A DNA stretch of 63,983 nt, counting the filler, from Hausera hauseri (Eukaryota), in NCBI GenBank assembly GCA_046269625.1. It is 13 parts of 13 records of this genome, joined end to end, with 100 filler letters (N's around TTAATTAATTAA, not from the genome) between each part and the next. Parts side by side here need not be neighbours in the genome. Positions count along the whole stretch, not along the records: positions 37,029 to 41,870 come from JBJURY010417033.1; 12 more parts are not named here. One strand, 5' to 3'. The notes under the pieces were generated by a model. That model was not told the DNA's origin. It ran no database searches and worked only from the letters and a program-made list of their open reading frames with translations. Of the stretch, positions 10,208-63,983 are shown piece after piece. Within the stretch, counting starts at the first letter, position 1, and every line of letters starts with the position of its first letter. Position numbers and translations under genes: made by a program.

Positions 10208-10364
10208 NNNNNNNNNNNNNNNNNNNNNNNNNNNNNNNNNNNNNNNNNNNNTTAATTAATTAANNNNNNNNNNNNNNNNNNNNNNNNNNNNNNNNNNNNN
10301 NNNNNNNTCTTGAAATACTATGTCGTGGGCAGTGGCTAATGTGAAACCACTGTGGAAAAGAAGA

Positions 10365-11000
10365 AAAGAAATTTATATTCTGAGGAGTATGGAAAAGAAA
10401 AAGTGTTCTGCTGAAACGATTTAGAATTCCAGGGTGTCAGAAGTTATACCGAAATAATAGCAAAATGTAACACCAACAAACGCCTGTATTTTAGAATTTT
10501 CAGGTGGTAGGACCGAACGGAATCATAGGAAACAAAAAGAGATAATACCTCCAGAACGGGCCGGTAACAAATTCAATAAAATTAAGGCAGCCAATAGAAA
10601 CTACAATAATAGAACTTTTGCCAGCATCAATTTCATTCATACCGGCGTAAATAAGGATGTGATTTGTACGGGAAATTGTCAACATTGCCGTATAAATATG
10701 ATGGAAACGACCGAATTAAACAACCTTGCCCAAAAACGTTCTACATAACATCGGTGTAACAGTGTAAGTCGTGTCATTTGAAATCTTGTATACAATCAAC
10801 AAAGACAACGACACCATTGTCGGAAATAGCAATTTATGTCGCCATTTTAAATCAGGTACATCATTTACAAATCCTAAAGGAGTCATACAACCTATTGACA
10901 ACAAACCTCCGAAATATTGAATAACATCGGTTTGCGCTGGACTCATTGTCGTTAAATTATAACTCAAAGTGAGTATGATACTTATCAGGGCCCGATAAAA
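10365..11000 (-). pseudogene. DPAGT1: DPAGT1/ALG7 (dolichyl-phosphate GlcNAc-1-phosphotransferase) fragment, apparently intronless
   Basis: GGLLSIGCMTPLGFVNDVPDLKWRHKLLFP, TNHILIYAGMNEIDAGKS, MIPFGPTT and GILNRFSRTLFLF match DPAGT1 LGFADDVLNLRWRHKLLLP, TNAINILAGINGLEAGQS and GILGHFSKT. Confidence 0.85.
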
Positions 11001-11079: not shown

Positions 11080-13070
11080 AAAAGTAATCCTATAGTGGTA
11101 GACACAAAGCTTTTAGTAAGCAATGTTGTACAAACATTGGCATAAACTGTAATAAAGGAGAAAAATGATAGGAGGGTATTGTTAATAAAAAATGTTAAAA
11201 AAATATTTGTCAAGCGAATAACACAATAATAGCAGTCTCACCCCGTCGTGTTTCCTTAAAAAGGTTGCCGGTGGATATATTTGATTAATTAAAGTCTTTG
11301 AATTGGGACTTTCAGAGAACTTATTCTTCTCTATAGAATCGGTATCAGTTGTATTATCGAGGGGCAAGAGTAGAAGTTTGTTATTGATCGGAGTTTGGAG
11401 TTCAGATCGTGGGAATCGAACCCACGCCCTCAGTCTGGGACCAGATAATCTATTAGCGACAATTATCTCCCATTTATCAAAATAAAATGTATCCAATAAC
11501 CAATCGGTACTTCCGGGGTTTGTCAAGTCAAAGTTTTCATTTAATAAGATATTGGAAAAACATACTTTCGAATGCCAGTTTCTTGGATCAACATCTTTAA
11601 CGCCCCAAACAATGCTCATTTTAATCCAATTTACATCAGTTGGATTGTTACGTTTAAAAATAAAATTCCTTTTCCATTTTTCATACGTCAATAAAGGATG
11701 AGAAGTGCTTATAATGGTTTGCGTTAAAAATGCTGGATATGACAATGTGGGATAGTAGAAAACACTAATAAAATCCACGGATAACACAAGTAAAAATTTG
11801 GCAAAAAAGAAATATTTAAAGGATAATATAAAGTTTACATAGAAACTTAGTAATCGATCATAAATCTTGTTGATTGAGTGTAAATATAAGAACATTCCTT
11901 TAGTCTCAACAATTTTTTGTTTGAACTAAGTGAACAAATCCAATAAACGAGTGATATTAAAAAACATGCAGTAAGGACATAATGAACAATTATTAAAATG
12001 GTACCAAATATGGCAAAACATTTAATTGCAATTATCGATGAATTAAAGCAAGACAGTAAAGATAAAGCAGTTGAAAAACTGGTCGAGAATATGATTATAA
12101 AAGTCGAATCAATCGTCAGAAAATTTTTTGTTTGTACCGATGAATCATACTCAACATATTTCTGCCATTGTAACATGTACACAAAGGTATCATCAGTTCC
12201 CAAAGCCAACAAAATCAAAACGTTCATAAAATTAACATATGGAAATATGTCTAATTGAAAAACTCGAAAGTAAATGATATATGATAGAAAGAATGAATTG
12301 GATAATAGAAAAATTGCCGAAACGGCAAACAAAATCGATTTACCAAAAACGAGTAGCAAAATAATCAATGGTATCAAAATAAAACTTTCATTAAAAAAGT
12401 CCACCATTAGACTGTTTCTCACAGTTTCATTTTCATTCAAAACCGTTGAACCTAACAATTCCACTTTATTGGTTTGCAGAATTTTCAGTAAACGTTGAAA
12501 AACAACAGCGGATTCCGTGGGAATATCGAGGAAAATCATACTAATTCCAGGATGAGACAATTCCATTTTGAGGGAACCTTTTAGTGGAATGAAATTATAG
12601 AACAGACGCATGATCCAACAATCTGTGGTTGTGAATGAAGTTTTCTCTCGTCTATTCATTAGACGTTTTGAGTATGCTTTAACTTTTTTGTTTACGTAGT
12701 TCATGTCAAATTCATCAATTTCAGAACATTTATTTCTGCGTGCAATTCGTCTGTAGACTTCTGCTTTCGATGTTACTGTAATTTCATGCTTACTTATCAA
12801 TTTGGACATCAATCGAATTGCGTCTTCAATCCGACATAAAGTATTTATTTTGTGATGTGAAGATACTGTTTTCTTTGAATTCGTTAATTCTATGCCTTTA
12901 CTTAGAAGCAAATTGTAATGAAAATCTGAGCATATTTCCAGTTTCTTCTTTCCGAATTTCTTCTCTACTCGACCCACAGACAAATGATCGTGGCGTTTAA
13001 ATCTGCCATTCCTATTGAATTTCTGTTTTGAATCTTCTTTCAACTATTCAGGAATGGTTACTGCTTTACC
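11080..13070 (-). pseudogene. disp: Dispatched-like sterol-sensing-domain membrane protein fragment (frameshifted, interrupted)
   Basis: FPYVNFMNVLILLALGTDDTFVY (GxDD), STSFSTALS..SSIIAIKCFAIFG, HPLLTYE and IVWGVKDVD..FDLTNPGSTDWL match Dispatched. Confidence 0.8.
11396..11445 (-). tRNA. Degenerate 3' half of a tRNA-Leu (variable arm, T arm, CCA end); not a functional gene
   Basis: TCTGGTCCCAGACTGAGGGCGTGGGTTCGATTCCCACGATCTGAACTCCA resembles the tRNA-Leu(CAA) 3' half. Confidence 0.65.
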
Positions 13071-13122: not shown

Positions 13123-13962
13123 TGTGGTTTTATTATTGCAATGACAGATTTCATTAAATCCAAATAACAATTATAGGATATATGAATGCAAATTAACACA
13201 GTTAATCTTTTATTACAATAATTTTTTTAAATTCAAAACAAAACTGTCAATTTATCAATCATGTATATCAAACTCATATCTGCTGTATTTATCTTTATTC
13301 TTTGAATGTACGATCTTGAAAACACTTGTACATTTTGAAGTGAAATGTTAACGTCTAATTCTCTGCTTCGAACAAAAGATTTCATTTTCTTTTATCTGAC
13401 CAAATTTTCTGCATGAACGACTCATAAGAGAATAAACCTCATTAGAGAATAAACCTCTATGTCAAATATTTTCATTTGGAAACACAAAATCTTAGACATC
13501 TTTGTTTTCTCAATTATTTGGTAAAACATTGGCAACAAAATTAACATCATGGACATAAGTACAATAATCTAAGATCAGTATGTTAAAGTCAGATTGTTGA
13601 TTGTTTATTTGTGGAATCTGGAATAGAATCTATTTTCAGGTCATTGTTCGAAAATTTGATGGATAATTTTATTTTGGTAGAACAATCATGAATATTCGAT
13701 CAAAACTTTTACTGACGTATCAGTCGACCTGTCTTTGAACTTTATTGTGATCTTTCCATGTAGTTGTATCGTATCAGGATTTTTATCTCGGACGGGAAAC
13801 CCGAAATTCGAATGATTGTGATTCAGACGAGAAACACTGCACGACGAAGCAGAACGACCAAACCGCCCTATTCCTCGACAAAACAGTAATCAGCAGCAAC
13901 AACAACAACAAAACTATATTAAAAACTATATTAAAACAGCATGTAACTTGTTAAGCACAACA
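13123..13962 (-). repeat. Putative LTR of CsRn1-like element (TGTTGTGC..AACCACA)
   Basis: Follows PPT GGGGGAGGGTGA (13963-13974); ends at ACA before a PBS-like site. Confidence 0.55.
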
Positions 13963-14097
13963 TCACCCTCCCCCGTGTCAAAAGTGGAAACTATAAGGAT
14001 AAAATCACGAAGTAGGATTTGTGGTTGGACTATGATGAACTATACAGAGAAGATGAAATGCAGGCTGAAAATTACGAGGTAGATGGTTTCTATTTGA

Positions 14098-15602: not shown

Positions 15603-16694
15603 TGTGTCTTTGGTTCTTCCATTTATTGTATATGTCGGATTAACAAGGATGATTTTTTTGTGAGACAGATATTCCTTTTTGAAAAAGAATTTCGAATGAA
15701 ATTAAGCACTCAAATATATCTAAAAATCCGCTGTAAAATAACAAGAAATTGTATAGACAAAATGGCTTAAATAATTTATTGATTAATTATTTACATATCT
15801 AAAAAACTCCAAGTTGGAGTATTAAAACAAAAAGTATCACATTTATTTCAGAAACGTTCTTTTTACCCGCATTTCATTTTTTTTCCGGCATTCGTATACG
15901 ATTAAAGAATAATTGATGCGATTGATTATAAAAAGGGAAATAAGATTTCGTTGAAATTTAGCAATTTCCTGGATTAAAGTCACATAGCCATTTGTCGTCT
16001 CAATATGACCATCGTTAAATGCTTTTCTGATGATAGATATTACCCAACGTATAGGAACAAAAGGTTGAGCATGAATTTGTGTTACATTTTCTAGTTATTC
16101 CAGTTCGTGGGGAAATAGTAATCCTTCTGTAAATTAAGATTGAAGATTTGGAAACTTTTCTTTGAATTGAATGCTAATTCTAGACAAACAAAGATTTAGT
16201 GCCAAGAGAAAATAGCGACCACAGGTTCGTCGTAAAAGTCTATGCTGAGGATCATTTGTATGCCAATGTGTTCCACGGAGTTGGAAGCGTTTGATATTCC
16301 ATGGCAAATGGACATCGTAAAATACAAAACGTTTATAGACCAGCGATATGGAGATATTGAGAATAAATGAAATTTTAATCAGATCAAGATTTTTCTAATT
16401 TGTCTGACGACAGCTTCAAATTGTTCTTAATACTTTTCACTCATTTGATATTTCTATTCTAACCAGTTTAACAAGACTACCATCCCATTGAGTGAAAATA
16501 ATTTCCAAAAGTAAAATGGTTTTGGATTACCGGCTTCTGAAAAATATGATACTGTCATAAGGAGTATCGATTTTGATAGGACTCGGCGAAGGAGACCGGC
16601 ACGGTCCGAGGCCTGGGACGCCATTGAGGCGATAACAGGCGCCCGACGTCGCCCAGACACCCGGCCGCGGGGCGTGCAAACGGTTGGCACCGCA
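15603..16694 (-). repeat. Putative cargo-bearing LTR (TGCGGTGCC..AAGACACA)
   Basis: Starts right after PPT GAGGGGATAG; the likely end has AATAAA then ACA at the point where hAT homology begins. Confidence 0.55.
15893..16558 (-). pseudogene. best: Bestrophin N-terminal half, apparently intronless, decayed
   Basis: MTVSYFSE..FWKLF/QWDGSLVKL, FEAVV..LDLIKISFIL, LPW, RLLRRTCGRY, KEKFP, FVPIRW match bestrophin MTITY..WRGSIYKL, LIPISFVL, RLLRRTLIRY, KRFP, WVPWVW. Confidence 0.85.
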
Positions 16695-19600
16695 CTATCC
16701 CCTCGTAGCAAAGTGTAAACTATAAAGGATAAAAAAGAATAAAAGAAAGAAATGCGCGAAACAGGAAAAAGTACATATGAAAGTATATGTTGAGATTGTT
16801 GTATACCCTTGTGATTTTAAAATGAAGTGTCCTGGAACCTTACTGTTTTTTGTGTGGTGTGAGTGTCATATTTGATTGAAAAGCATTTTGGGTAAATCGA
16901 ATGTCGAATTTTGGGTTGTGTTGTGTAAGGGTGGCGATAGAAGATGAGGAGATGAAGAAGAGGAAGTAAACATGGCTGGAGGAGGAGCAGTAGAGGTGAA
17001 AGAGTCGGTGAGGAAGATTGGGGAAAGTGAAAGAGTTGAAGGTGGAAGTGTAGACGTTTGTAAGAGAGTGAATTGAGCAGAATTGTGGAAATGAAAATCA
17101 GCAGCTGTGTGAACGTTTAAGGTTGGAGTATTGTGAAAAGGTGAAGGAGATAAGATGAAAAAAGCGGAAGAAATTTGGTGCTTTGGTGGAGGTTGGTGAG
17201 GTGGATTAAAGAATTGGACCGAAATGGGAGATAGTGAGGTCGATGAAGTGTTAGGCAAAGTATGTGAAGTAGTGGAAGGCGACGAAGGTTGAGATAGAAT
17301 AGCTGGTTGCGTAGATGTTTGTGAGTACTGATTATCAGATTGACTTTGGGTGTTTGCGGAGGTCGACAAAAGAGTAGTTTCAGCTGAAGTGGTATCGTCA
17401 ATAAAGAAAGCTGGTTTTAAGTTACTAAGATGAACCTATTGTTCTTTGTTGTCTTTAAGAATGATAGCGTAACGGGAATGAAGTGAAAGTAGTTTATAGG
17501 GGCCAGTGTACCGTGGCTGAAAACTGACCGGAGTTTTTTTATCCAAACGAATTTAGCTGTGTAGAGGTCGTTAGGAATGTATGGTCGATTGTCATGTAGA
17601 ACTCTGAAAAAAGCGTCTTTACTGATAGTGACAAAATGTTCTTGGGCCCCCCGAATAGTTTCATCAGTAGGTGAGTTGTCCTGTGCAGCTAACTCGAAAA
17701 GGGCACGTAATGGTGTGCCAAATAGGGCCTCCGACGGGGAGCAATCGGTTGATGTGGATGGGGTGTTTCGCCATCCAAGTAAGACAAAAGGTAAAAGGTT
17801 TACCCATTGGGGATTGTGTTCAGCTAGGATTCTGAGACAGGTTCTCATTGTACGATAAAAACGCTCTAAAAGGCCGTTTGACTGGGTGTGGTAGGGTTTT
17901 GTGTGGATGTGGGATATGCCCAGTCGATTTACTAGTGATTTAAAGAGACTCGACTCAAATTGGGGACCTTGGTCGGTGATGATGTGTTTGTGTGAGCCGA
18001 ATCGGCTGAGCCATACACGCATAAAGGAGTCAGCTATGGACTCAGTGTTTGTGGGTCGAAGTGGAACTGCGTCTGGCCATCTAGGCGAACGGTTCATTAG
18101 GGTGAGGATGAATTGGTGACCGTTGTGTGGTGGAAGAGGGCCGCCGATATCAAGGTGGACAGTATCAAAGCGTGACGTACAGGGAAAATGATAAAGTGGC
18201 GGCTTTAGGTGTTTAGTGATTATGAATTTTTGGCACGCCGCACACTCCCTAACCCGTGCCTGTACGTCTGTTTTCATTGATGGCCATGTAACTTGGCGTT
18301 TTAATAGGTGATATGCGGCCTTGGATCCTGGATGGTGTAAGGCATGAATGTTTGTAAAGGCTATTTTTTGGACAGATGGAACTAATATGATTTCAGGCCA
18401 TCCAGGGTTGGTGGTATTGAAGGCCACGCCATTAATGATTACAAAAGATTTATAAGAAGTGAGAGTTTCATCATCCGGTTGATTCCGTCGAAGCGTCTCG
18501 TTGTCTAGAATTGGTTTAAAAGTTACCGAGTCAACTAAACGTGACAAAAAATCAGGTACAACGTTGTCTGTGCCGTTTGTATGTTTTATTGTAAAATTGA
18601 AAGTTAACAAATAGGGTATATGTCTCTCCTGGCGTAGAGAGGGAGATTTCATGTTGAAAATGTGTAGCAGCGGCTTATGGTCTGTTTGAATTGTCAAGGT
18701 GCGTGATATTAAGAGATGATTAAAATGCTTGACTGCGAGGACCATTGCTAAAAGTTTTCTGTCAAAGGCAGAGTACTTTTTCTCTGTTGTAGTAAACTTT
18801 GTAGAAAAGAACTCTAAAGGTTGATGCGTGTTATTTTTAAATTGGTGGAGTACTGCACCTGCAGCGATAGTTGATGCGTCCGTTGTAAGAAAAAGTTCGG
18901 ATGTAGAATCTGGATAGGCTAATATTTCTACTGTTTTGAGATTTGCTTTTAGGTGTTCGAAAGCATTAACAAGTTCAAGTGTCCAAATAATAGGCTGTTT
19001 CTTTTACCAGCGCTTAAGGTAGCAAATGGAGCGGTTAATGTAGAACAATGCGGCACGTATTTATGAATAAAATGCAAGGTACCGAGGAAGGAACGCATTT
19101 CTGAAGTTGTGCGTGGTAATTGAATGTTTTTCAGTTGCGTGATGCGGTCTTGTTGTGGAGCGTGTCCGGTTGGAGTAATAATGTGTCCGAGGAAATTAAT
19201 TTTTTTGTTTAAAGAAGGAGCATTTTGCAAAGTTTACTTGGAGATTGTTTTGGTGGAGTCGTTTGAAAACAATGCGTAGGTGCTCAGTATGCTGTTTAGA
19301 GAATGAGGAGGCAATTAAAATATTATCGATGTAGGGATATGCGAAGTCTAAGTCTGCCAGGACGGTGTCTATGTGCCTTTGAAAGGTTTGGGCTGCACTG
19401 CGTAAGCCAAATGGCATGTATAAATATTTAAAAAGTCCGAAAGGAGTTGTTACTGTCGTTTTTGGAATGTCGGCTGGTGCTACAGGGATTTGGTGGTATG
19501 CCTTATAGAGATCGATGTTTGAGAAAATGGTAGAGCCGTAAAGTCTATGTAGGATGTCATTAATTAGAGGCAAAGGGTAGACGTCCATGGTTGTAATCTG

Positions 19601-29241: not shown

Positions 29242-30297
29242 TGAGCATTTATTTGAAACTTAATAGTAAGTGATTATCAGAACATGACAACAATACCGCT
29301 GAACGGTTTACCATGACGTTGGACCCGCCGCTCGACTTACGCCACGGAGTCTGGGAAGTGGCTTTAGCGGAATTCACGTTTACATTTTCATTAATAACTA
29401 CGTGAGAACAGTGGAATATACTATACCCTAGTAAGACAATCTCCTGCATCTAGTCGTTTGCAGTTAGTCCAAGACTCTAATGGAACATTTTACGTTCGCA
29501 ATTACAAGCGGCAATATTTCCCGGTTTATTTTTCATTTAAACAATCGATTGGTGCTAAAACACAAACATACGATTGAATTGCAATTTAAATCACTAGCCG
29601 ACTCTCAGGCATTGGGTTTTCAATCATCTGCCAATATGCGGTCAAAAGGTCTACAACTCGGTGGACATTGTATAATTAGTGAAAAATTGAACGTTTCCCA
29701 AAAACACCATGAAAACCACCGATATTACAGTGAAATGGCAAAAGACTGAATCATTTTTTACTCTCATACAACAGGAATGGGTTTTCTTACGGAAATGAAA
29801 ACATAATTGTGTACAACTATCAAGGCAGTAGCTAAATTGGCTCTCGAGACATTTGAATTAAACTCTGATGGTCGTATTTCGTTTACACTACACGATAATG
29901 TTACATATTTTGCCTATGATGAACTATTGGCAAGGAATCTGGGTTTTAAGAAACGAGAATTCGGTCAAACCGGCGCCGGACTGCCCATAGTTGCTAAAAA
30001 AACCGTCTCTACGAAACATTTCATCGAATCAATATTTTAACGATCTAACCGAACCCGTATGTCGGCAGGCACAAAAAACAACTATCGGCTTCTATTGGAC
30101 TGGATCCGGACACGTACAAAACACCGGGCGAAACTGCTCATGTAAATATCATCCGGCCCATGAATTTATCGTTGTCTCACAATGTTCTGCACAGTATTTC
30201 CATGCATATAGTAGACGAATTTTGGAAACCCATTAAATTTCTGTTTAGATCAACGACACATTTGACGTTACATTTTCGACGTCGTCAACGTCGATAA
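29241..30297 (+). pseudogene. Minor capsid protein (penton-like), copy 1
   Basis: MSIYL..PPLDL..WEVALAEF; C-terminal LTLHFRRR. Confidence 0.7.
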
Positions 30298-30336
30298 TAA
30301 ACAAACTACGTCATCATCACCATCATCATCGAGATC

Positions 30337-31396
30337 ATGAGTATTTACATGGTGTTACCGAGCAACAGTTGTCCGACTACTCGTTCGAACAATTCCGCTA
30401 GTGAATACGTTGCAGATTGGAACAATCCTTTGGATTTATTTACTGGACAATGGGAGGTTGCACTGACGGAATTTAACTTTCCCTACGCAACGGTAACATT
30501 AAAAGATAGTATGAAAATAACGTACAACAAAACTGTTACAGAAACCAAAACACATTCGTGTCCTCTGACACTTACTAACAATAAAATAACAATTGGAGAA
30601 TCGGGCATTTGCACGACAGAAGCAAATTACGGTATATTCGGCAAGATCGGTGTTTTTATTATAAATCCAAACTTACATTTTATGGAAGATTTTGAATTTA
30701 CCGTTACCTTTGAGTCCTCTGAGATGACTCAGAAATTTGGATTCAAAAATATAAGGTACAAAGATAAAGATATTAAAAGTGAATATGCAGTTGCTCCTGT
30801 GTATTACCAGACAACGGTGAAATTTACCTACACAACAGAAAAGGTGTCGACGTCATACGTATCGAATGGAGACCATGTCTATTTTGAATCTGTAGCACAT
30901 CTCTGTTAACACTTCTTTAAGTGAAAAGTACAAGGCGATATTTACAGTTTCCGAGTCAGATGCAAATGGGTACATTAAATTCGAACTGGCTAAGGATATT
31001 GTTGACATTTCATTGGACAAAGCTTTGGCCATGGTATTGGGTTTTGAAAAGCACCGGCTTGAGACATCATATACGAAGACAGGGGCGGAGATGGCAAATG
31101 TTGCAACACTCAAACCCAAACTAAAAACGGGACTAAGTCAAATGTACATTTACGTGAATGTCACCGAACCGATTTTGGTCGGTGGAGTACGTGTACCGCT
31201 ACTCTGTACAATTTATCCGGAAAGCAGCAAATATACTGCCGGCGACAATGTCATTGTCAATCTCGATAATCCAATGTATCTGCCTGTGGCATCCACATCT
31301 ATAATCAATGTTGAAGTAAATATCCAATGTGACGCGGGCTACCTTATTGAATTTCCGTACTGTACCACAACCAGTATCACTCTTCATTTCCGTTAA
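30337..31396 (+). pseudogene. Minor capsid protein (penton-like), copy 2
   Basis: YMVLPSNS..WEVALTEF; MYIYVNVTEPILVGGVRVPLL; NPMYLPV; ITLHFR. Confidence 0.85.
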
Positions 31397-31403
31397 ATAC
31401 AGC

Positions 31404-31769
31404 ATGATTGACTCTGAAATCGTTTCCATTTACAGTAAGCCTCAGCAGGGTGGATAACTGTCGTATTTCGTTGGTAAACAGTATGGCTCCGGATGGTTAC
31501 GTACATTAGCACATTTAGCAATTCCGGTGTTGAAGTGTGTCGGTGCCATGGCAGCAAAAACAGCACAGGACGTACTATATGAAAACAACTCGATTTTACC
31601 ATCACTGAAGAAACATGCATTGTCCGAAATAAAAAGCGGTGCACCGGGAGTCGTTGAATCAGTCAAAAAACAATTCGTTGGCAGTGCCTTGATGATGAGA
31701 AAACGCCGTAGAGCATCATCGAGTTCAACAGCTATAAACAAACGTCGTCGTCGTACGATTTTCGATTGA
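31404..31769 (+). pseudogene. Small pVI-like virion protein
   Basis: QQGG and QYGSG sites, amphipathic GWLRTLAHLAIPVLK, basic tail KRRRRTIFD. Confidence 0.55.
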
Positions 31770-31784
31770 TTGACAGATAGACAA

Positions 31785-32081
31785 ATGGCATCTGCAAAAT
31801 ATGAATTGTGTACACTGGACAAAGGCGCACCACAAGTTGTTATTGACAATACGGCATTTGAAGAAATCTACCCCGTTGATTCGGTTTCAACGGATGATAA
31901 CATTAACATTCAATTCAACATTATGGCATCGGACAATGATATCTGGATTTGAACGATACGCTACTCTATGTAAAAAAAAACTGTTCAAAAAGATGCATTA
32001 ACAATTCTCGCTGCAACAGACACTGTCACACCGGCCAATTACTTTTTCCTCACACTGTTCCAGGAGGCTTCACTGACTCTG
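31785..32081 (+). pseudogene. Maverick major capsid protein N-terminus
   Basis: FEEIYP..IQFNI..LNDTLLYVK; matches 34312-35535. Confidence 0.8.
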
Positions 32082-32181
32082 NNNNNNNNNNNNNNNNNNN
32101 NNNNNNNNNNNNNNNNNNNNNNNNNTTAATTAATTAANNNNNNNNNNNNNNNNNNNNNNNNNNNNNNNNNNNNNNNNNNNN

Positions 32182-32760
32182 ATCTCGATCAAAGTGTATT
32201 TCGTTATCTATTCGGTTTCTCTGATCATTTCTGCGGTTATCATTTTTACGTGAATCAAAATTTTTCTGATCATTTTCAAAAAATCGATTAACGTTTTTCT
32301 GTCCTTTTGGTGCGGCAAATGATTCTATCATTTGGGCCTATTTACGGCATCAACAAAGTCACTAGGATATTTTGCCTGTACTTTATATTTCAATTTTGTA
32401 CTTAGTCCGTTCAAAAATTGAGTGAGCAATAATATGTCGGTATTTAATTATTTTTTCATAAAATTTCTTTTTTCTTTTTTCTACATCTAGTCGGACTGCT
32501 TCGACGTATTGGGAGACAATTTGTCATAGAGCATAGGCATATAGGGTGGCAGATTCATTATATTGCTGATGTCTGTTTTGTAACTTAATCAATTGTTGGT
32601 GTGGGGATAAGGTAGGATAGAACTTGTCAATAAAGGCAGTCTGTACGTTATGCAATTTGTCCTTTTCTTCATCTGTCAATTCATTGTAAGCCTCAGCTGC
32701 CATGTCTGTGAGGAACAATGGTAGTCGTCTGGCCATCTCGTTCTCTTATAAACCCATAGC
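32182..32760 (-). pseudogene. gag: Gypsy gag remnant
   Basis: RRLPLFLTDMAAEAY..F..QQYNESATLYA; QFLNGL. Confidence 0.65.
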
Positions 32761-33310
32761 TATAAGTAGGGGGGAGTGAGCGCTCCACCGCACTTCTCTG
32801 ATTGATCAGTCGACCAATTTTCTCCACATGATTGGCTATTTCGAGCATTTCGAAAATTTTCTCACAACCCCTCCCCGCGGGGACACGCTTTGGACATCGA
32901 ACCGACTCAAATCGGTAGAGCTCGACAATCTTAACAAAATTTAATAGCGGTGCGGCTTACAGAAATGTAAGAGAGAGGCGCTAGAACAGGAAGAATCAAA
33001 ACAGGAAATGCTAACGTGTAACGTGAAACATGGTGGTAGCATGGAGACAATGTATACAAAGGATAAATCGATGTTGGCGAATCCAATGGACATGGTTGCA
33101 ACTTAATCAGACAATGGGAACATGGGGAAAAATCTATGGGTAAATTTCAAACTAGGAAAATTTCCCCTTACACAAGTCAAACGGTGATGGAAATGGGTTG
33201 AGCATATAGCCCATCAGTAGTTCTGCTAGGGAAAAAAAAGAGTTCTGGACCAAAGGGGGGTCCATCCACGCACCAATTGATTAATCACAAGCGGCTCGCA
33301 TGCTGATTCG

Positions 33311-33671
33311 TCAATTCGACAACGGCGAGTTCATTGGTGCGGTTGGTTTTTGCGTGTCGCAAAAGACAAATCCAAGAAAAATGCAAAAGAACAAAACGAA
33401 CTTTTTGCAGCAGCAAAATGTGAGCAGAAGTGGATAAGAGAAAGTATAGAGTAGAGTATGGGCGTTCTAATGATGTGTGAAACATTGGGTTCGCATGTTT
33501 GGGAAAAGTGGAAAAGTCGGTCAAAGAGAGAAAAAGGTGGCGCCAATGAAAACGCAGGTGAATTTCAATGGATTCATTAATGTTAGCGCCGGTAGGTGAA
33601 TGGTTTGTGTTCAAATCGACAACGGCAAGTTCAGTGGTGCGGTCGGTTTAGCTTGTCGCAGAAGATAAAGC
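33311..33671 (+). repeat. Imperfect direct repeat of about 60 bp, two copies 300 bp apart
   Basis: tcaattcgacaacggcgagttcattggtgcggttggttt (33311) vs tcaaatcgacaacggcaagttcagtggtgcggtcggttt (33611). Confidence 0.8.
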
Positions 33672-33890
33672 CGGGATACGACGAGTTGACACGTGCAATG
33701 GTAAGGCGTAACGTTAAACAAGTGTTCGTTACGCACCAGACATGCCTGCATGCAAAACGAAATAATGAGTTGTGACGTAAAGCGTCTGTTTGTGCGTGTA
33801 GCAAAGGGACGTAGAAGTGATGGCAATAATAACGCATGTATAACAAAATACTGTATTTTTCTCAAAATGAACACAAAGTACAATCATTGT

Positions 33891-34200
33891 TCATCCAAGT
33901 ATCTGTAATGTTGGCCACAGTAAGCAGTAATGTCCACACAATACGGTCAGTGGATGTTGATAATGAAATAGATTGTATTCAACACGATATGACGCTGGTG
34001 ATTGTCTTTCAATTTGAGAAACTAACGATGACGGGTAGTAAAATCCGAGTGGATCGAATACTCTGACGACGTTGGTCAGATGGACGTACACAGCAATCCA
34101 ATGTTCACCTGGCAACAATGAAGTTTGTGTATTGACAATAAAGCCGCCAGTCTGTCGTAAATCACACCACGAAATTTCGCACCCAAGTTCAGTTTTCCGT
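33891..34200 (-). pseudogene. Adenain-type cysteine protease of Maverick
   Basis: VNT..PGEHWIAVY, FDPLG, YQHPLTVLCGHYC. Confidence 0.88.
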
Positions 34201-34311
34201 ACTGACTGCGCTCAGTGGAGCTAAATGTAAAAGAATGTAATAGTAATCAAAATAAATTTCTTCATAGCACCACGACGGCGAAGAAGAAGAAGAGGTGCGG
34301 ATTTTATTTAT

Positions 34312-35535
34312 TTATGCAATGACGGTTCCGTATTTCATTATTTCAACCTCGGCATCAAATACACCGTAAATGTACATCACGGTAAACTGCTCCAACGCTT
34401 TAGCAAAGTGACCCTCCAGTCTCTGTTTTCACTGGTGAGATAGTTGAGTCTGTTCAACGTCATAATTTTCAGCTAGTACAAAGGTGAAGAATGGATAGGT
34501 GGATTTGAAAAAATCCACCGATATGCTATTGTTGATATTTTTGTTCAATGAACCCATGTTGCGCACGATAGATTGCATATATGTGCAAACATAATCGCCG
34601 GTCTCGAAATCCTGCTAGTATGTCTCAACGAAATTCGCATTCGACCCAAACCGATGTAATTTACATTGATATGGGTAAACTTTTCCGAATCGGTGGTATA
34701 ACTTCCCGTTTGTTGAGCAGTCGTTTGAAATGTAACGAACACAAATTTTGGCAATCGCATGTCGCCAAACAGTGCATCTTTGTAAAATGTAGTTGAACCT
34801 TTTGGTATAGTGTAAATCACGAGTTCTATGCGTTGTAATGGGTAACAGGCATTTTGTTTTTTCCAAGCCCAATTGATGTCCCATGGGCACAGATTGTTCT
34901 ACCTTTACACGACGTACGTATAATCGTGCCCCGGTAATTTTCAGAATGGGTTTGAGATTTGCAACTGCAGTTTTCAAACATAAGACATTGTCGCTGAGTT
35001 TGAGTCGAATCATGGATTTAACACCAGGCAGCAGGTATTTCGGCTGATCGAAAAAGTCAAAGTACAGGGGTCCACACATCGTAAGTGCTTTTGATTCTGC
35101 CACCCATGCCTGACGGTTTGCAGCTGTGGCGTCATATCCGATGGTTTTCGTCAAATGAGTCGTTTTCGTGTCTGTACTGTAATTCAGAGCCGTTTCAGTG
35201 AGTGCTTTGATACTGAATAAACTGGTGTTGTCTTCAATTTTGAAGCTGTTTAGAGTCATTGAAGCCTCCTGGAAAAATGTGAGGAAAAGGTAGTTGGCCG
35301 GTGTGACAGTGTCTGTTGCAGCGAGAACCGTTGATGCATCCTTTCTAACAATGACTTTTACATAGAGTATCGTGTCGTTCAAATTGAGATATTCATTGTC
35401 TGATCCCATAATGTTAAATTGAATGTCAATGTTATCGTCCGTTGAAACAGAATCTTCTTCAAATTCTGCATCGTCAATAACAACTTATGGCGCGCCTTTG
35501 TCAAATATACACTATTCATATTTTGCAGAAGCCAT
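34312..35535 (-). pseudogene. Maverick major capsid protein (double jelly-roll, PY)
   Basis: GPLYFDFFDQPKYLLPGV, ARLYVRRVKV, RLPKFVFV, C-terminal YIYGVFDAEVEI. Confidence 0.85.
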
Positions 35536-35541
35536 TTAGTA

Positions 35542-36928
35542 TCAATCAATCGAAAATCGTACGACGACGACATTTGTTTATAGCAGAAAAGTAGCTGATC
35601 TACTACGTTTTTGTTTTCTCAAGCCACTGCCAGCGAATTGTTTTTTGACTGATTCAACGACTTTCGGTACAGTAGTTTTTATTTCTGACAAGGCGTGTTC
35701 CTTCAATGATGGTAAAATCGATTTGTTTTTATATATTACATCTTGTACTATTTTTGCTGCCACGGCTCTAATACGCTTCAACACCGGAAATTCTAAGTGA
35801 GTCAGTGTACGCAACCATCCAGAGCAATACTGTTTACCAACGAAATACGGCAGTTCACCGCCATACTAGGGTTTAGTGTAAATGAAAACGATGTCAGAAT
35901 CAATCAAGTTGTTCGTTTCGACGGAAATGAAGATTCAGACTGGTTGTGGTACCGTACAGAAATTCAATAAGGTAGCCCGGGTCACATATGATATTGACTT
36001 CAACATTGTTTATAGATGTAGTTGCCACAGGTAGGTACATTGGATTATCGAACTTGACAGTGACATTGTCGCCAGGAGTATACTTGCTGCTTTAAGGATA
36101 AATTACACGCAGTAGCGATACGCGTATTCCACCAACCAAAATCGGTTCGGTGACGTTCACGGAAATGTACATTTTACTTAGTCCAGTTTTCAGTTTGGGT
36201 TTAAGTGTTGCAACATGTGCAGCCGTCTTCGTATTCGACGCCTCAATCCGCCGTTTTTCAAAACCCAATACCATGGATAAAACTTTGTCCATTGAAATGT
36301 TGAAAATATCCTTAGCCAGTTCAAATTTAATGTACCCATTTTCACCTGACTCAAAAACTTTAAATACCTCCTTGTACTTTTGATTTGAAGAAAAGTGTTG
36401 ATAGAGATGTGCTACAAATTTGCAATAGACATTGATTCCAATCTATCCGTATGCTGTATAGGTAAATTTCAGCGTTGTCTGCTAATATACGGGATTTAAT
36501 CTGCGAACAACTGCATATTCACTTTTAATATGTTTACCATTGTACTCTGTATTTTTGAGTCAAAATTGATGCGCCATATCAGAGGACTCAAAAGTGACAG
36601 CAAATTTAAAATCTGCCATAAAATGTAAGTTTTCCCCTAAAATAAAAACACTGATCTTGCCGTATAAACCGTAATTTTTACTGGTCGTGCCAATGGGCGA
36701 TTCTCCAACTATTATTTTATTGTCAGTAAGTGTCAGAGGACAAAAATGCGTTTTGGTTTCAGTAACAATCTTTTTGTACCTTATCTTCATACTATCTTTC
36801 AATGTCACTGGTGCGTAGGGAAAGTTAGATTGCGCCAGTGCAACCTCCAATTTTCCAGATAAATACAAAGGATTGTTCCAATCTACAACGTATTCACTAG
36901 CTGAATTGTTCGGAAGAGTCGTCGGACA
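35542..36928 (-). pseudogene. Maverick pVI-like gene and minor capsid copy 2 (second element copy)
   Basis: Colinear homology with 30337-31769. Confidence 0.8.
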
Positions 36929-37988
36929 NNNNNNNNNNNNNNNNNNNNNNNNNNNNNNNNNNNNNNNNNNNNTTAATTAATTAANNNNNNNNNNNNNNNN
37001 NNNNNNNNNNNNNNNNNNNNNNNNNNNNCTGACATCCTTAAATCTTTTAAATCGTGCAAAACCATCGACGGTGTGGCCTTTGACACCTCCAAACCTAATA
37101 ATCCTTTCTGAATCGCTTCAAAAAGAGGCATTCAACAACATCCATTCGTTGCACCATCCTGGTGCCAAGGCCACTTTTCAACTCTTACAACGCCAAGTAG
37201 TATGGCCGTCGATGCGCTCTGACGTGCAGGCATGGGTCAGGCAGTGTGTGGCATGCCAAAAATACAAAGTTACTAAGCATTTAAAGCCACCACTCTATCA
37301 TTTTCCCTGCACGTCTCGTTTTGAATCCGTTTACATTGACCTTGTAGGCCCACTACCCTTAGACAACGGCCATCAGTTCATCCTCACAATGATGGACAGT
37401 TCCTCGCGATGGACAGAGGCTGTCCCGCTTCGGAGCACCAATACAAACAATCGCAGACGTTTTCATCCGCACTTGGATCAGCAGGTTTCGATCACCTCGC
37501 CACATCATTTCGGACCAACGTCCACAGTTCGAATCCAACCTGTTTAAAGCTCTTGTCAATGGATTGGGAATTAACCACATTCACGTCACTATATCATACC
37601 CAATCGAATGGCCTTGAACGCTTTCACCGAACGATAAAAACGTCTCTCAAAATCCTTGCTGAGTCTAATCGCAGTTGGACTACACTGCTTCTGTACGTTC
37701 TGCTTGGCTGGCGGAATACACCATCTACTTCTACAGGCTGTTCACCTGCAGAAGCATTATTTGGCACTTCCATCAAACAATTATTCGAGCTGACTGAGCT
37801 GGACACTATTCCTACAGATGAAACCATGCAAGCGGCACAGACACTTCGTTGAAATCAGCAGACTCATTTTGTAGACTATTACACGGAAATAAACCTTACA
37901 TACCCGACGATGTATATACTGTAAAGTTCGTTTGGTTAGAATCAGACGCAGTGTGGTTTTCAACCTCAGTATGTCTGCCCGTACAAAG

Positions 37989-39264
37989 TGTAGTGCCCAC
38001 ATTCACCCAATAGGTGATGTTAAAAAAAATTTTTATTGAATTTTTAAATAGACTATTCGAAAGAAATTTTTTCTAAAACAATTCTAATTCTGAGATACAT
38101 GTCGGAGTCAATTTATTTTCGTCTATTCTTCAAACAATTTAGCAATGACAATGGGGAAATAAGTCCCGATGCTCTTTAGGCATTGTCCAAATGCTATCCG
38201 GACGTTGATAATGATAAAATAATGAGGGTCTAGAAAAATTGGCAAGCCAATCCACAAATCTGGAATTTCAAAGCCATTCAATCGATAGTTATTCTAAATA
38301 ACAAGTTTACTGCGCCAAAAACAGATGATTCAATTGTTCGGAGTAAACAATCAGTGACGATAAATCTGACGAACAAAACATCATTATTCACGTCTGATGA
38401 ACCAAAGAAATTGAAGATTTCGTTTGTACAAAGAAACTCCTTGTCAAAGAAATGCGTTGCTTCGCTCATTATTTTTCAGCGGAAAGTGAGTCATATGAAG
38501 ATGTTGGCATATCAGTCCATTGTGATATCAATATATTTGACTGGCTCATGAAGTGTTAGAAGAGAACAGTTGTCAGAATGCGACAGAGTATCAGTTTCAT
38601 CATTAAAACCAAGTAATGTTTCGATATTAATATCATCCGACTTTTTAAAAATGGATACTTTGGTTGATGATTGCATCGAATACATTCATTCGAATATAAA
38701 TGATCTGCTGTCGACATCGTACAACATAAATTGTGTAAATTCTTCGCTTATCGAAAAGATTGCAGAACGATTCACTGATTTAGAAATAGATGCCATTGTC
38801 GACGAAAAAGATAAAATAAGAAATAAATTATTTCGAATCAAAATGGGGCAGCTAAAGTCTGATAATATTCCTGGTGATTTGTACGTCATTACTGAATATC
38901 CCGAAGATGGACACTATATTACAATCACTGATCCATCAAGTGATACTATTTTTGAACGATTAGGTAGCATTGGCGACAAAATTCAAATTGAAATTATGGG
39001 CAATTCAGTGGAATATAAAATTGAGGGTCTTAATGTTGATAAAACTTGTCGACAAACCCGTGTACTTTCATAATTCTCATACGGCTAAGTCCAACGAAAC
39101 GTTCAATGGTCAACCGGTCCAATATATAATGGCAAACGATAGCATCGGGCCGAACGTAAAACAATCTGATGGTGGCGGTAATGAAGAATATGCCGTAGTT
39201 GAAAGAACCGTGTTAATCGATTCAAGGAATAAACAAATGGCTTCACTAACTGAAAAACCTCACA
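37989..39264 (+). mobile_element. 1276-bp solo-LTR-like insertion (TGTAGTGCCCA..CCTCACA) with 5-bp TSD CAAAG, filled with host gene fragments
   Basis: CAAAG at 37984-37988 and 39265-39269; TG..CA termini; start resembles LTR start TGTGGTGCCCA at 40302. Confidence 0.85.
38080..38845 (+). pseudogene. SANBR: SANBR/KIAA1841 (SANT-BTB, DUF3342) fragment, apparently intronless
   Basis: IIHV..EDFVCTKKLLVKEMRCFAHY..VGISVHCDINIFDWLM; LKPSNVSILISSDFLKMDTLVDDCIEY..NINCVN..DEKDKIRNKLF. Confidence 0.85.
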
Positions 39265-40301
39265 CAAAGTAATTCGTTTACACTCCCACATCATCATCCT
39301 GAAGGACGACAAAGTAACAGTCAACATCAACAACGCTAAACCGGCTTTCTTCATTGACGACATGTCGCCCATCGAAACCACTTCATCAACATCTTCACAC
39401 GACGCGCAGCAATCCAACAATGCACCTTCCATCTCTGCTCAATTTCTTAATCCACTTTTGCCTACGCTTTCTCCCAAGACTTCTACTTGAATTTCTTCTG
39501 ACAATTCAGCCTCATTTTTCCCATCCGATTTTGCACCCTAAAGCCTTTTCACACCTGATAACAACCTGCGTTCTCCTCTTACAATACCTCCTCCATCAAA
39601 TACCACTTCGACTTCACCAATCTCTCCATCCATCCCTCTCATCATTCCAGCCTCTTGCATACCACCCTCCAACTACTTTCCTTCGCCTTCTCCATCTTAC
39701 TCTTTTCCGTTTTGTCCCTCTTCGCCGTTCTCTCTTTCTCCTTCCACACCTTCCTCATCTTCGGCGCTTTCTTCCTTTCTCCTCACACATCATTTTTAAT
39801 CCCCTTCATTTCCGCTCCGCAACTTCCCCTTTTTACTTCTATCCCTCTCTTCCTCTCTCTACCACTACCTCTGTGTCATCTTCCACTTCCGTTCTTTCAC
39901 CCAATTAAATTCCGACTTTTACTCCAACATTTTCTCTTTCTTTATCCGTCACTACACCTTTTATCATTCCTTCATCTTCTAACACTCTCTTGAATACCTC
40001 TAATCATCCGTCTCCAACAATCTCTTTCTCCTTCACCTTTTTTTATTCTGATTCATCTTCGCACGACACAACACTTACCACAAAATCCGACAATTTTTTC
40101 CCCAACTTCAACCTCTGCAAGCAAACACATCGCATAAAGACAAAACACGCAGTCACATTTAGCAAGTATAGCAGGAAAAAATCAGTAGAAGGCATCCAAC
40201 GTCTTGTCCACACTAAGACCAACTGACAGTTTTTCGTTTAGCGATTTTTTCTTGCCGTCTATTTTGGTCTTCATAGTTTTCACTTTGCCACGGGGGAGTG
40301 G

Positions 40302-40400
40302 TGTGGTGCCCATAGCGGCCGGCGCCCTTTGGCCCATTTGATTGGGCACGGTCGGGCTTCCTTTGCCGCCGCGTCGGGCCCGATCTCCCTCCTCGAAAGT
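40302..40400 (+). repeat. Start of 3' LTR (GC-rich); right boundary not determined
   Basis: TGTGGTGCCCA directly after the PPT. Confidence 0.7.
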
Positions 40401-40469
40401 GTCTTAGAGTACTGAGAAATTTTCCACTCTTCCAAGTGTTCTGGAAAGTAGTCAGTTTAGTGATGTAGT

Positions 40470-40676
40470 AGATTCTGTGTTCAAATATTAAAGAATGTTG
40501 TGTCAAAGAAATCGAAATTTGTAAAATCATTTTACTAATTGGTTAGAGTTTTTCCAGCTTCATCTTTGAGAATTCACAGAATCGAATTTGACATACTTGA
40601 TAAAAACGATTATTCACCAGTTTTCAAGGAAATTTATATCGAAGTGCAAAAAGTTGCAGAAACAATTGCAATCTAA
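40470..40676 (+). pseudogene. Protocadherin/cadherin EC1-EC2 junction fragment
   Basis: LC..ECC....C..LRIHRIEFDILDKNDYSPVF..VAE (DxNDNxPxF motif). Confidence 0.55.
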
Positions 40677-41486
40677 AATAAAGGTTTAATGAATTGAAAT
40701 TAATTCACAAAACAGTGTCAAATTACAAAAATTATACAAAACTTCTCAGTTTGATTCCGATGAGTCTGACACGGAAAACAAATCGAAGACGCACAAATCT
40801 GTTGCCGTACCAATTGGTAGCGATGACTCCTCATCAGAAAGCGATGTCATGCAGTCGATTGATGCAGGTGGCAAATCTCGTGAAGAAATAACCGGGACTA
40901 TAGAAAATATTCATCCGATTTTGTGGAAATTTAGAAAAATGAAATAAGACTAAATAAGTGCAGAGAATATTGCATGACCAATTACCTGACCTTTATGCAA
41001 AAAATGTGATTTGACGTTTACGCTTTTAACTATTGCAAAAGCAGAATAAAAATTTTTTTATTTGAATTGTGAAAATATTCAGACATTTTTTTAAAATATA
41101 TCAATCAGTTTCTACTTCATTGTGGACATTATCAAAGAATTTGTTGTCAGTTATAATTTGGAAATTTCTAGCTTCAATTCGAATTTAACATTTTTGAAAC
41201 TAAATCGTAATTTTAAATTGTGGATTTTGGCTGTTGTGGCCTCGAAAATGATAACTGTGGTTAGTTCTTTACACGTTTTTTTCTGGAACAGACGAAAATG
41301 AACCGTCTCGTTATCTGTTACGGATAAATAATCTTATTTGTCTACTTCACTGTGGATGGGACTCAAATTTTAGCAATTCATAATTCAATCAAATAACCAA
41401 GAACGCTAAAAGGGTCGACGCTGTTCTTCAGTCACACGCTGATGTTCGTCATTGGGGGCTTGTCTCGCTTCGTTGGAAAATGTGAT

Positions 41487-41870
41487 CTAAGTTGTCGAAT
41501 GTATGCTAGTCTTCCACCTCCTAGAAAGGGTCATTATCCCGTTCGGATTACGCAATAATTGCATTTTATGTTTATGCAATTTCGCCTTGTGTCCTTGCTG
41601 ACTACACCCATAGCATATTATGGATTTCCTTTCTGAGCAATTCCTGTTAATGTGCCCTTCTTTTCCGCAACCAAAGCACCTTGGTGCTTGTTGGAGGTTG
41701 CATGTCCTGCTTGTATACCCGTCTTTCTGGCACGACCAGCATTTCATCCTATTCTTTACCTGCGTATTTTGCAGTTTGAAATCCCTTCTTTCCTGTCTTG
41801 GTTTGTCAAGTTTCTGCATTGCCACATCCCGGTAACTCCGTCGACCCTCTCTAGTGTATTCTTTGACTGT
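41487..41870 (-). pseudogene. gag: gag nucleocapsid remnant with three CCHC knuckles
   Basis: CWSCQKDGYTSRTC, CFGCGKEGHINRNC, CYGCSQQGHKAKL. Confidence 0.7.
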
Positions 41871-45824: not shown

Positions 45825-47207
45825 GTTCCCGTACCGCGCCGTCGACGCCGGTTGGAGCCGCCGAGACTTGGCCGAACATCCACTGAGTCCAGTTCGGACG
45901 ACGGTTCGACTCGTCCGCGCCGAAGCCCGAGGATCCATCCGGTCCTCTCCTCTACCGAGGACTCGTACGCCTCGGCGGACGAACCGATTGCGGATAAAAA
46001 TAAAATTTTCAAACTTTGTTTGATTTTCGTTTATTGTTTGACGTTGTACCCGTTGGTTTTGCTCGACCGTTTTATAAAATGTAAAACCATGAAAATGGTG
46101 GCAGCGGTTACCGCATTTACGACTTTCAATACAAATTCAGCCATTGAAATCAATCCGGCTCGAACACTGCACACGGCAGTTGATAAAAGTCCGGCTAAAA
46201 GTCGCACAAGTGCCGTCGAAATTAATCCGGTCACACAATCGTATATCAGCAAGTATGATCACGTAACACCCACTGACAGTTTTACTAGTAAAATCAACTG
46301 CAATTAGAAAATCACAATGAGTGATTCTGAACAAGTGCTAAAATATCCTAGCACTAACACACGTGACAACATAATTCACTATGGTGAAACACCATCGACC
46401 GATAGTACGCCAAACGAAGTACAACTCANNNNNNNNNNNNNNNNNNNNNNNNNNNNNNNNNNNNNNNNNNNNTTAATTAATTAANNNNNNNNNNNNNNNN
46501 NNNNNNNNNNNNNNNNNNNNNNNNNNNNTATATGACATTATGAAGATATTAAAGTTACGATCCACACCGGGACATCCGGAGAATAATGGAATGGTTGAGA
46601 GATATATTGGAGACTTGAAAGGGAAATTACAAACGGTAGTAAATACTAGGCAAAATGATTGGGGCGAATATATCAATGCATGTGTTTTCGTAAATCGGAC
46701 ATCGGTTTATGAATCCACTAAAGAGACACCCTTCTACTTTATGTATTTACGGGACGCAAGGTTACCGATTGATCTAGATTTTAATGTGAAACCCATTTCA
46801 CACTTAATGGAAGTAGAAGATTATATGCAGTTAATGCAGGAACGCCTACAGTTAGTATATAAAATGATTGGTGAAAATCAGAAAGATTATAAACTAAGAT
46901 ATGAAAAATATTATGATCAAAAGACCAAACAGCAAAAATTAAAATAGGCAACCAAGTAATGTTATATTCACCGGTAATTAAAAAGGGTAAAACGTCTAAG
47001 TTAGATAGACCATATAAAGGACCGTATGAAGTAGAAAAAATAGATTTACCGAATATTTGTTTGAAGAAAAATAATACTTCTGTAAAAGTCCATGTTAATA
47101 GATGTAAACCCTATGCCAAAGAGAGCAAACTAAGAAAAGGTGAAAAAGAGTCGGTATGTAGCATCAGTAAATAGGTAATCGAAATAAGTTCAACAAGTAA
47201 ACTTCAG

Positions 47208-48565: not shown

Positions 48566-48746
48566 CGGTTAAGTCTAGGGATTGCTGTTTATGCAACCCT
48601 TTTAATAGAGATAACCACATGTCACCAGGTTACCTACAAGAATAAGTTAAAATATAAAACTACAACGATTACCATTGTGTGTTTGATAACCATTGTGCTG
48701 CGTGTAGATATCTGTAATGACTTTTTATTGACATTTCTTTCTACAG

Positions 48747-55210: not shown

Positions 55211-55287
55211 TGATTGTGATAATAATAATAATAGTTAGTTGTTTTGCTTGTGTTATAAACCAAAAATGATTTTGTACATGATAAGTA

Positions 55288-63000: not shown

Positions 63001-63983
63001 GGTGTAGGATAGCAGTATTAAAATAGTGTTTGAAGAGGTAATTTTGTCTAGTGAATGTACCGAACCAACACAATCATAGTTGTCAAAACCAAATCTCGAC
63101 GGAATATCCATATTATCATTGAAAAATTTACGAAATGATAAATACTTGTTGAAGAAGTTTGGATTACTTACAGGATTTTTGAGTATAGACTTCCGCGAGA
63201 AGATCGTTTGCGCCTTAGCGGATATACTATTTATTTGCTTAGTAAGATATCCAATAATGTTACGTTTCAGATATTGTTGTTTGCAATCAACTAAAAGATT
63301 ATATTTCGATAAGAAATCCGAACCTAGGATTGCTGTGCGGACGTTAGCGATGGTAAACATTCAATGAAACGTGGAATGAAATTTTGGTTAGGTGAACGAC
63401 AATTTAGATGTACCTGAAATGCCAAGCGGTTGTCCTGAAGCCGTAAATAACGATTTAGCTTTAAATGGTGAATTTTGTACAGGGAAAATGAGTGGTATCA
63501 GAGAAACCGCAGCGCCTGTGTCGATAAGGAAGTCTATGGATTGATTTGTTGATATGGTTATCGAAGCCTTTAGTGTGAAGACTGCAAAAGAAGTGTGTCG
63601 GCAGGTAGTATTAGAGAAGTTGCCTTTGCTAGACTCTGCCGGCGGCTAAATTAGTTTTTTTTGGATTGGTGAGATTGGCCGACTATTACTAGGGGAAATA
63701 GAACGTCTGTACTAGTATGGTTAGCGGTGTTCTTATAGTTGCAGCCTGAAGCAAACAATCTTGTCTGAATGTAAATTTGGAGTGTAATATCTACAACCTA
63801 AACAGCATTTATTAGCTTTATTATTAAGTTTGCTATGATAATTGCACACAAAATATCGTGTAGGCGATGGTGACCTGTTTCTGGAAACAGAATGAGTAAG
63901 ATTATAAATAGGAACACTTCGTCGTGGTAATGAAAGATCGTTCAACCTATTATTAATGTTATTTATTGTCTGTTGTAGTGCTA
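60036..63983 (-). mobile_element. CsRn1-clade Gypsy element (gag CHCC, PR, RT, RH, INT, tail), degenerate
   Basis: CNYH..ANKCCLGC gag motif, FLIDTGA, YIDD, TDAS, HHPG..CVACQK, KSVTFSTYS. Confidence 0.92.

Follow-up and report, generated by a model that had tools for sequence, protein, structure and literature searches.

A host SANBR fragment inside a probable solo long terminal repeat of a Ty3/gypsy family in Hausera hauseri

An insert in a Ty3/gypsy integrase gene

The stretch analyzed here, called the window below, comprises 63,983 nucleotides of the genome of Hausera hauseri (assembly GCA_046269625.1). It consists of contigs of ~5 kb chained by 12 N spacers of 100 nt and, since the contigs are merely chained, nothing is read across their ends. 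Decayed transposable elements, including Polinton-like pieces and gypsy-like elements of other kinds, form the bulk of these contigs, and the host genes that we recognized are animal-type. One Ty3/gypsy family is represented by four copies with about 64–73% DNA identity to one another, and its domain order (protease, reverse transcriptase, RNase H, integrase) is that of CsRn1-like elements. Our subject is an insert that interrupts the integrase gene of one of these copies, the recipient, on the contig at 37029-41870, and that contains a fragment of the host gene SANBR (KIAA1841). The interrupted integrase region is 71% identical to that of a sister copy at 61515-60547. The coordinates of all features are collected in table 1.

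The insert starts with TGTAGTGCCCA at 37989, ends with CCTCACA at 39264 and has CAAAG on either side. The direct repeat can also be read as 6 bp (ACAAAG), not as 7, and TG..CA ends result from the 5-bp reading only. When the two flanks were aligned separately to three sister copies they were collinear, that is, adjacent or overlapping, in all three; in the best sister the left-flank alignment extends down to 60550 and that of the right flank starts at 60552, an overlap on identical bases. Because both flanks use the same sister bases, the CAAAG repeat is a true target-site duplication (TSD) at a clean site in the integrase gene, and the proposal of an earlier note on this DNA, that the sequence had been inserted as a unit with a perfect TSD, is borne out. 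Additional information comes from two sequencing runs, X1 and X2, neither of which derives from the source individual (shared words, 0.41 and 0.07, respectively). Contigs of X1 skip exactly 1281 nt at the insert and thus represent uninterrupted family copies.

The structure of the insert is that of one long terminal repeat (LTR). Its 5' tip resembles the start of the family LTR at 40302, as the earlier note had observed, and the two are the sole sites with at most one mismatch on either strand of the window; given a TG start, the chance of such a match is about 4e-5. Two further sisters begin TGTTGTGC and TGCGGTGC 3' of the same G-rich tract. Near the other end an AATAAA occurs at 39228-39233, 31 nt before the last base. 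A scan of the insert returned no terminal inverted repeat (TIR), no motif resembling a primer-binding site (PBS) or a polypurine tract (PPT), no terminal direct repeat and no 3' A-run; its interior has neither internal open reading frames (ORFs) nor a second LTR (no self-match), and Rfam has no match within it. The two ends are complementary at 3/5, 4/20 and 6/30 positions. As in solo LTRs, then, the termini are TG..CA and the duplication at the clean site falls within 4–6 bp; these features, the family tip, the AATAAA and the lack of TIR, PBS, PPT and second LTR together describe the anatomy of one LTR.

The interior comprises an AT-rich leader, the SANBR fragment and a 3' block. The first 110 nt of the insert have a GC content of 25%. 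The SANBR fragment is recognized by the Pfam profile BTB_SANBR (E 9.8e-14 and 1.2e-5, in two frames) and by a homologous protein with the same domain (P0001), whose residues 1-257 align to 38099-38845 with E 8e-41 in segments of 27/77, 28/50 and 58/92 identities across two frames, and so its presence, first proposed in the earlier note, is confirmed. That note also considered the fragment intronless, which holds at the level of the protein comparison: there is no intron-sized gap against P0001, and no poly(A). An in-frame fusion to the second fragment was proposed as well. In effect, the last SANBR segment alone continues in frame into the 3' block, which itself has two open frames; at least two frameshifts and three stops lie in the SANBR piece, and given those upstream no fusion protein can come from this copy. 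In X1 and X2 contigs the stop at 38231-38233 is absent and extra bases are found at the frameshift near 38413. Run contigs lacking these two defects indicate that a less damaged SANBR version exists, either the parent or other copies, and both defects presumably arose after capture.

Depth, used here as summed contig depth per bin and not as copy number, separates the parts of the insert. It is 719 over the leader in X1 (bin 38001-38162), where X2 shows no increase. In X1, values of 97-136 over 38163-38810 compare with 3083-3445 over 38811-39296, and in X2 SANBR at 3-10 compares with the 3' block at 25-39. The 3' block is about 25-30x deeper than SANBR, and the step, sharp in both runs, lies at ~38850 and coincides with the end of SANBR homology, from which it follows that the block is common to many loci without SANBR. 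The idea that host mRNA had become the LTR body thus stands insofar as host coding sequence lies inside the unit, but within it the low-copy SANBR passenger is bracketed by a short tip and a multi-copy block.

The second-longest open frame of the 3' block was reached by 0 of 2000 base shuffles. An HMMER search of representatives yielded a one-stretch homologue, P0010 (38%, E 1.5e-5), and the other nine of its ten matches were set aside, being long repeat proteins whose scores add up from short stretches. No match to P0010 was seen in the second frame. For the block, Pfam, the word-indexed homologue searches and a PDB profile search gave no match, and the ESM Atlas no usable one. AlphaFold confidently models a six-strand core in P0010, for which no fold match was obtained (Foldseek, best E 0.14; VIA, best Z 5.7). 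Suspected resemblances to fatty-acid-binding and viral minor capsid proteins found no support and were rejected. The block may be an older host capture or the element's own sequence.

Host-gene pieces in sister elements

Three family copies in the window, the recipient included, have a PPT, and two of these three carry identified host-gene pieces downstream. That gene capture occurs in this family, also suggested in the earlier note, is supported by these pieces, which follow the PPT and LTR start of sister elements. In sister 1 two different genes stand in tandem, Dispatched, which is truncated, and DPAGT1, which is also in sense orientation and reaches the contig end. In sister 2 a weak N-terminal match puts the probable ATG of the Bestrophin piece at 16558, a distance of 136 nt from the LTR start (by itself, the N-terminal frame gives no significant match); in the insert the corresponding distance for SANBR is 110 nt. 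All four identified pieces (SANBR, Bestrophin, Dispatched and DPAGT1) are in sense orientation and decayed, and their alignments contain no intron-sized gap. The vertebrate orthologues of these genes have introns in these regions. As a fragmented assembly may favor copies with unique cargo, the sister counts give no family-wide rate.

Between Dispatched and DPAGT1 lies a stretch resembling a tRNA T-arm (11409-11460, minus strand; Rfam tmRNA T-loop, E 0.003, below the gathering score). ARAGORN found no tRNA gene there, nor any other tRNA gene, and the stretch could be a tRNA fragment or the head of a short interspersed element (SINE) in the chimera. On the 3' side of the Bestrophin piece, 14950-15450 (minus strand) is a degenerate coding stretch with no Pfam match, presumably similar to the C-terminus of a hAT/Buster transposase; it may be a nested insertion or further cargo.

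In the recipient, depth is 15648 in bin 40269-40430 and 94 in the next. Among five terminal stretches that were folded, the 40302 block alone was notable, with a long hairpin (z -2.2). The GC- and CpG-rich LTR starts (40302-40420, 64%; 16580-16694, 73%) stand out from a background of 37% GC. The low-copy sequence that follows in the recipient has no significant Pfam match and ends at 41403-41870, where the gag zinc knuckle of another element of very high depth lies on the minus strand. A long C/T-rich tail coding for Ser, Pro and Thr extends 3' of the integrase at 39330-40150 and, in sisters, at 16870-17400 and 14200-14440; its length varies among copies (many internal skips in run contigs), and a conserved basic stretch and then the PPT follow it.

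Table 1. Positions of the insert, of the recipient element and of sister-element features in the window
Feature	Position	Strand	Remarks
Integrase region of decayed Ty3/gypsy recipient	37029..37983	+	Integrase_H2C2, E 8e-18
Target-site duplication, left copy CAAAG	37984..37988	+	flanks overlap on sister copies
Inserted unit, TGT..ACA, single-LTR anatomy, probable solo LTR	37989..39264	+	1276 bp
LTR 5' tip	37989..37999	+	10/11 identical to family LTR start at 40302
AT-rich leader before SANBR ATG	38000..38098	+	LTR remnant and/or host 5' untranslated region
Decayed SANBR/KIAA1841 fragment, low copy	38099..38845	+	codons 1 to ~257 from ATG, 3'-truncated
Multi-copy 3' block, coding-like (two long stop-free frames), ends CACA	38846..39264	+	~420 bp
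Target-site duplication, right copy CAAAG	39265..39269	+	
Recipient PPT	40292..40301	+	motif also in two sisters
Recipient 3' LTR start, GC/CpG-rich, high-copy, roughly 110-130 nt	40302..40430	+	64% GC
Low-copy, partly coding-like sequence 3' of LTR start, cargo or flank	40431..41402	+	depth 30-140
Sister element 1, PPT and LTR start (TG at 13962)	13951..13974	-	
Dispatched (DISP1-like), sense to sister 1, frameshifted, 3'-truncated	11488..12416	-	E 1e-16; E 2e-6
DPAGT1, residues 96-305 of PDB chain, collinear, with stops	10314..10925	-	E 1.7e-32
Sister element 2, PPT and GC-rich LTR start (TG at 16694)	16580..16704	-	73% GC
Bestrophin, sense to sister 2, collinear over profile positions 64-231, with stops	15912..16558	-	E 2.4e-29
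CX2HX9CX3C gag motif, sister element 3	63793..63846	-	only copy with gag in window

Elsewhere in the window, several copies of a DNA element, 77–83% identical, occupy 25785-36928, 51384-55804 and 58483-59935. They encode an rve integrase, ATPase-like, capsid-like and protease-like ORFs, a dUTPase and an ORF similar to TATA-binding protein, and we take the element to be Polinton/Maverick-like. Gypsy-like elements at 1-4122, 4223-10207 and 46529-51283 have long extra ORFs 3' of the integrase (e.g., 47175-49990 and 2283-4122), some with membrane segments predicted by eye and without Pfam match; possibly they form a further cargo- or env-bearing family. A T/C-rich, microsatellite-like array of about 2.5 kb with units of 8 and 12 nt lies at 55860-58350.

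Origin of the insert

With moderate confidence, we interpret the insert as a single LTR of this CsRn1-like Ty3/gypsy family that gained a piece of host mRNA during reverse transcription. In this scenario SANBR mRNA would have been co-packaged with element RNA. Early in minus-strand synthesis, once the 3' block of the LTR had been copied, the reverse transcriptase would have switched into the mRNA near codon 257, copied it as far as its 5' end and rejoined the element immediately 3' of the PPT. In the standard LTR cycle, PPT-primed plus-strand synthesis and the second strand transfer duplicate the LTR and leave gag-pol unaffected, and a chimeric LTR would in this way come to lie at both ends. 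Integrase would then have placed the element in the integrase gene of an older family member, with the 5-bp duplication that is observed, and recombination between the two LTRs would have left one of them behind. The cargo decayed after insertion. The SANBR piece, which runs from codon 1, is 3'-truncated and has no poly(A), supports the capture of an mRNA, in line with the pattern described by Tan et al. (2016; PMC5131818). Furthermore, the model predicts unrecombined forms, to which the pol-bearing sisters with cargo behind PPT and LTR start correspond, and these argue for repeated capture at the same position. Together, these observations suggest a Ty3/gypsy family that copies host mRNAs into its terminal repeats and not into its interior.

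A more tentative extension, possible in our view though doubtful, is that the LTR of an autonomous gypsy family lengthens as 5' ends of host mRNAs are added to it one after another. In this model, minus-strand strong-stop DNA would first jump to a co-packaged mRNA, run off its 5' end and then reach the U3/R border of the element. Each round would set a new fragment behind a promoter block of ~110–130 nt, and R would become a chain with the newest piece 5' and the oldest 3'; low-copy SANBR ahead of the high-copy coding-like block, and Dispatched ahead of DPAGT1, could be examples. Pol would stay intact, every insertion would carry two cargo copies, and solo LTRs would scatter fragments with their own start codon.

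Several observations weigh against the main interpretation, that of a single LTR of this family with captured mRNA. Past base 11, the insert start and the 40302 start are unrelated (11/49), and of the match to be expected between a whole insert and the LTR of a full-length element only these first nucleotides are found, the 3' block being multi-copy. The GC-rich block known from two sisters is absent from the insert. No other part of the window matches the 3' block, which is thus not established as the LTR end of this family, and the window contains no full-length element with two matching LTRs, no sister 5' LTR and no LTR 3' end. The solo LTR claimed in the earlier note accordingly stands on its TG..CA ends, TSD, family tip and single-LTR anatomy, but not on an element with two such LTRs in the window. 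In the recipient, only low-copy DNA without match comes after the LTR start, and in sister 1 about 1.5 kb without significant match separate the LTR start from the first significant Dispatched match. As for the read support that the earlier note called for, uninterrupted sites are present, and among the joints and contig pieces listed for X1 and X2 none shows a filled junction. The duplication measures 5 bp as against 4 bp in published CsRn1-like elements. Relatives with full LTRs were also sought elsewhere; metagenome scans gave none beyond one distant locus (L001, 38%), and viral contigs none. Another 25 loci retrieved with a PPT-plus-tip pattern were discarded as relatives, for they encode no reverse transcriptase or integrase and do not match the insert.

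Among the alternatives, a rather unlikely one is that the insert derives from an internal-cargo retrocopy, a pseudo-LTR element of the type described by Tan et al., cut by deletions so that the 5' tip of the 5' LTR, the SANBR cargo and a distal 3' LTR remnant are left, the sisters having made internal or read-through captures of their own. Retrocopies of this kind form by a common, published mechanism (PMC5131818), a tip followed by low-copy mRNA and a multi-copy end fits the anatomy of such an element, and the known LTR start is matched over 11 nt only. Nevertheless, two deletions would be needed, removing PBS, PPT and the LTR duplication yet sparing both tips. Moreover, in the sisters an intact PPT and LTR tip precede the cargo and pol lies upstream, whereas internal ORFs were replaced in 15/15 Drosophila cases in the same source.

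In another scenario, which we judge unlikely, the family has short LTRs and integrates by preference at the 5' ends of Pol II genes; host DNA next to the sisters would then be flanking or 3'-transduced sequence, and the insert a one-off read-through chimera. High depth does end about 130 nt past 40302, CsRn1-like LTRs as short as 146 bp have been published (PMC2582038), and ATGs at 110–136 nt from the tip would also suit insertion at transcription starts. Native loci are not expected to look like these pieces, however, which are decayed, truncated and intron-free, one of them chimeric. The cargo of the insert is placed within the duplication, with no R-U5 repeat on both sides, and by eye the 40302 block has neither an AATAAA nor an ACA end.

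A third route, very unlikely here, would insert a retrocopy or a piece of DNA into an LTR already present, by the machinery of long interspersed elements (LINEs) or by double-strand-break repair, with later copying to both LTRs. It would produce the same final solo-LTR anatomy, and has been proposed for the SINEs in Cassandra, Helenus and Ajax (PMC10886601). Yet SANBR retains the 5' end but neither the 3' end nor a poly(A), opposite to what L1-type retrocopies show, and the longest repeat shared by the borders of the SANBR piece is 6 nt, the chance level. Nor would this route explain why several copies have cargo at one position and in sense orientation only. An L1-type processed pseudogene was likewise discarded: SANBR starts at the ATG, is 3'-truncated and has no A-run at its 3' border.

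Ends of the TGT..ACA type with a TSD of 4–6 bp also describe Ginger-type elements, and Polinton-like DNA elements are abundant in the window. A Pack-type DNA transposon (Ginger/TDD, Mutator, hAT or Transib) or a Helitron with captured DNA is nonetheless highly improbable, being largely refuted by the missing TIRs (ends complementary at 4/20 and 6/30); the tip matches the LTR start of a retroelement, no intron-sized gaps are present, and to our knowledge Helitrons do not make the TSD seen here. An assembly chimera is barely credible: the assembly is fragmented and repeat-rich, both runs are foreign to the source individual and the listed records include no filled junction, but the 5-bp duplication (p about 1e-3), TG..CA (p about 3e-3) and the tip (p about 4e-5) would not jointly come from a mis-join.

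Relation to known capture systems and implications

LTR-mediated retroposition by template switching has been described in metazoans (Tan et al. 2016, PMC5131818), with retrocopies that are 3'-truncated and without poly(A). As there, the insert has a partial host mRNA, with neither poly(A) nor a TSD of its own, joined to LTR-element sequence; the published cases share with ours partial, sense, 3'-truncated mRNA pieces without poly(A), multi-gene chimeras and remobilization. In those cases, the cargo replaces internal ORFs and yields a non-autonomous element with two LTRs. In contrast, here it sits between a PPT-proximal tip and a CA end, in a unit with the anatomy of one LTR, pol lies upstream in the sisters, and internal replacement is not seen. 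The main text of that paper never uses the word "solo". Retroviral oncogene transduction, maize Bs1 and HERV-K/FAM8A1 (as cited in PMC5131818) similarly join host RNA, either co-packaged or transcribed by read-through, to element RNA by template switching of reverse transcriptase, but as internal cargo.

Host-RNA-derived sequence inside an LTR, present at both ends and in solo LTRs with TSDs of 4–5 bp, is known from Cassandra, Helenus and Ajax (PMC10886601), miniature retrotransposons with terminal repeats (TRIMs) whose LTRs contain 5S rRNA or tRNA sequence. These miniatures are not autonomous, carry a single fixed small-RNA promoter and are presumed to stem from SINE insertion, whereas the cargo in H. 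hauseri is protein-coding, varies between copies, is decayed and occurs on pol-bearing elements. The insert itself was rejected as a TRIM or TRIMp3, since it has no two short LTRs with PBS and PPT and no Rfam match. With CsRn1, PwRn1 and AgCR (PMC2582038) the family shares a CX2HX9CX3C gag, the order of protease, reverse transcriptase, RNase H and integrase, a G-rich PPT and TGT..ACA-type ends; the LTRs described there measure 146–381 bp with a 4-bp TSD, and host cargo is unmentioned in the part available, as opposed to 1276 bp and 5 bp here. In the full-text literature, covering few subscription journals and not the supplements of PMC5131818, we found no variable protein-coding mRNA cargo in LTRs of pol-bearing gypsy elements. 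On our reading, the insert is a variant of known LTR-mediated retroposition in which the position of the cargo is unusual.

If the LTRs prove short and the cargo flanking DNA, the finding shrinks to one odd retrocopy and a possible integration preference. No new protein function is implied in any case, as the captured SANBR piece is dead. Gene capture mediated by LTRs, as it is known, takes place at the expense of the element's coding region. Capture into the LTR, if true, would leave the element autonomous, double the cargo with every insertion and let it persist as solo LTRs. Such copies would be a natural record of misdirected first-strand transfer, and would mislead gene annotation and LTR finders. 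For the genome of H. hauseri, the family would then represent a potentially high-throughput route to scatter and shuffle fragments of host genes.

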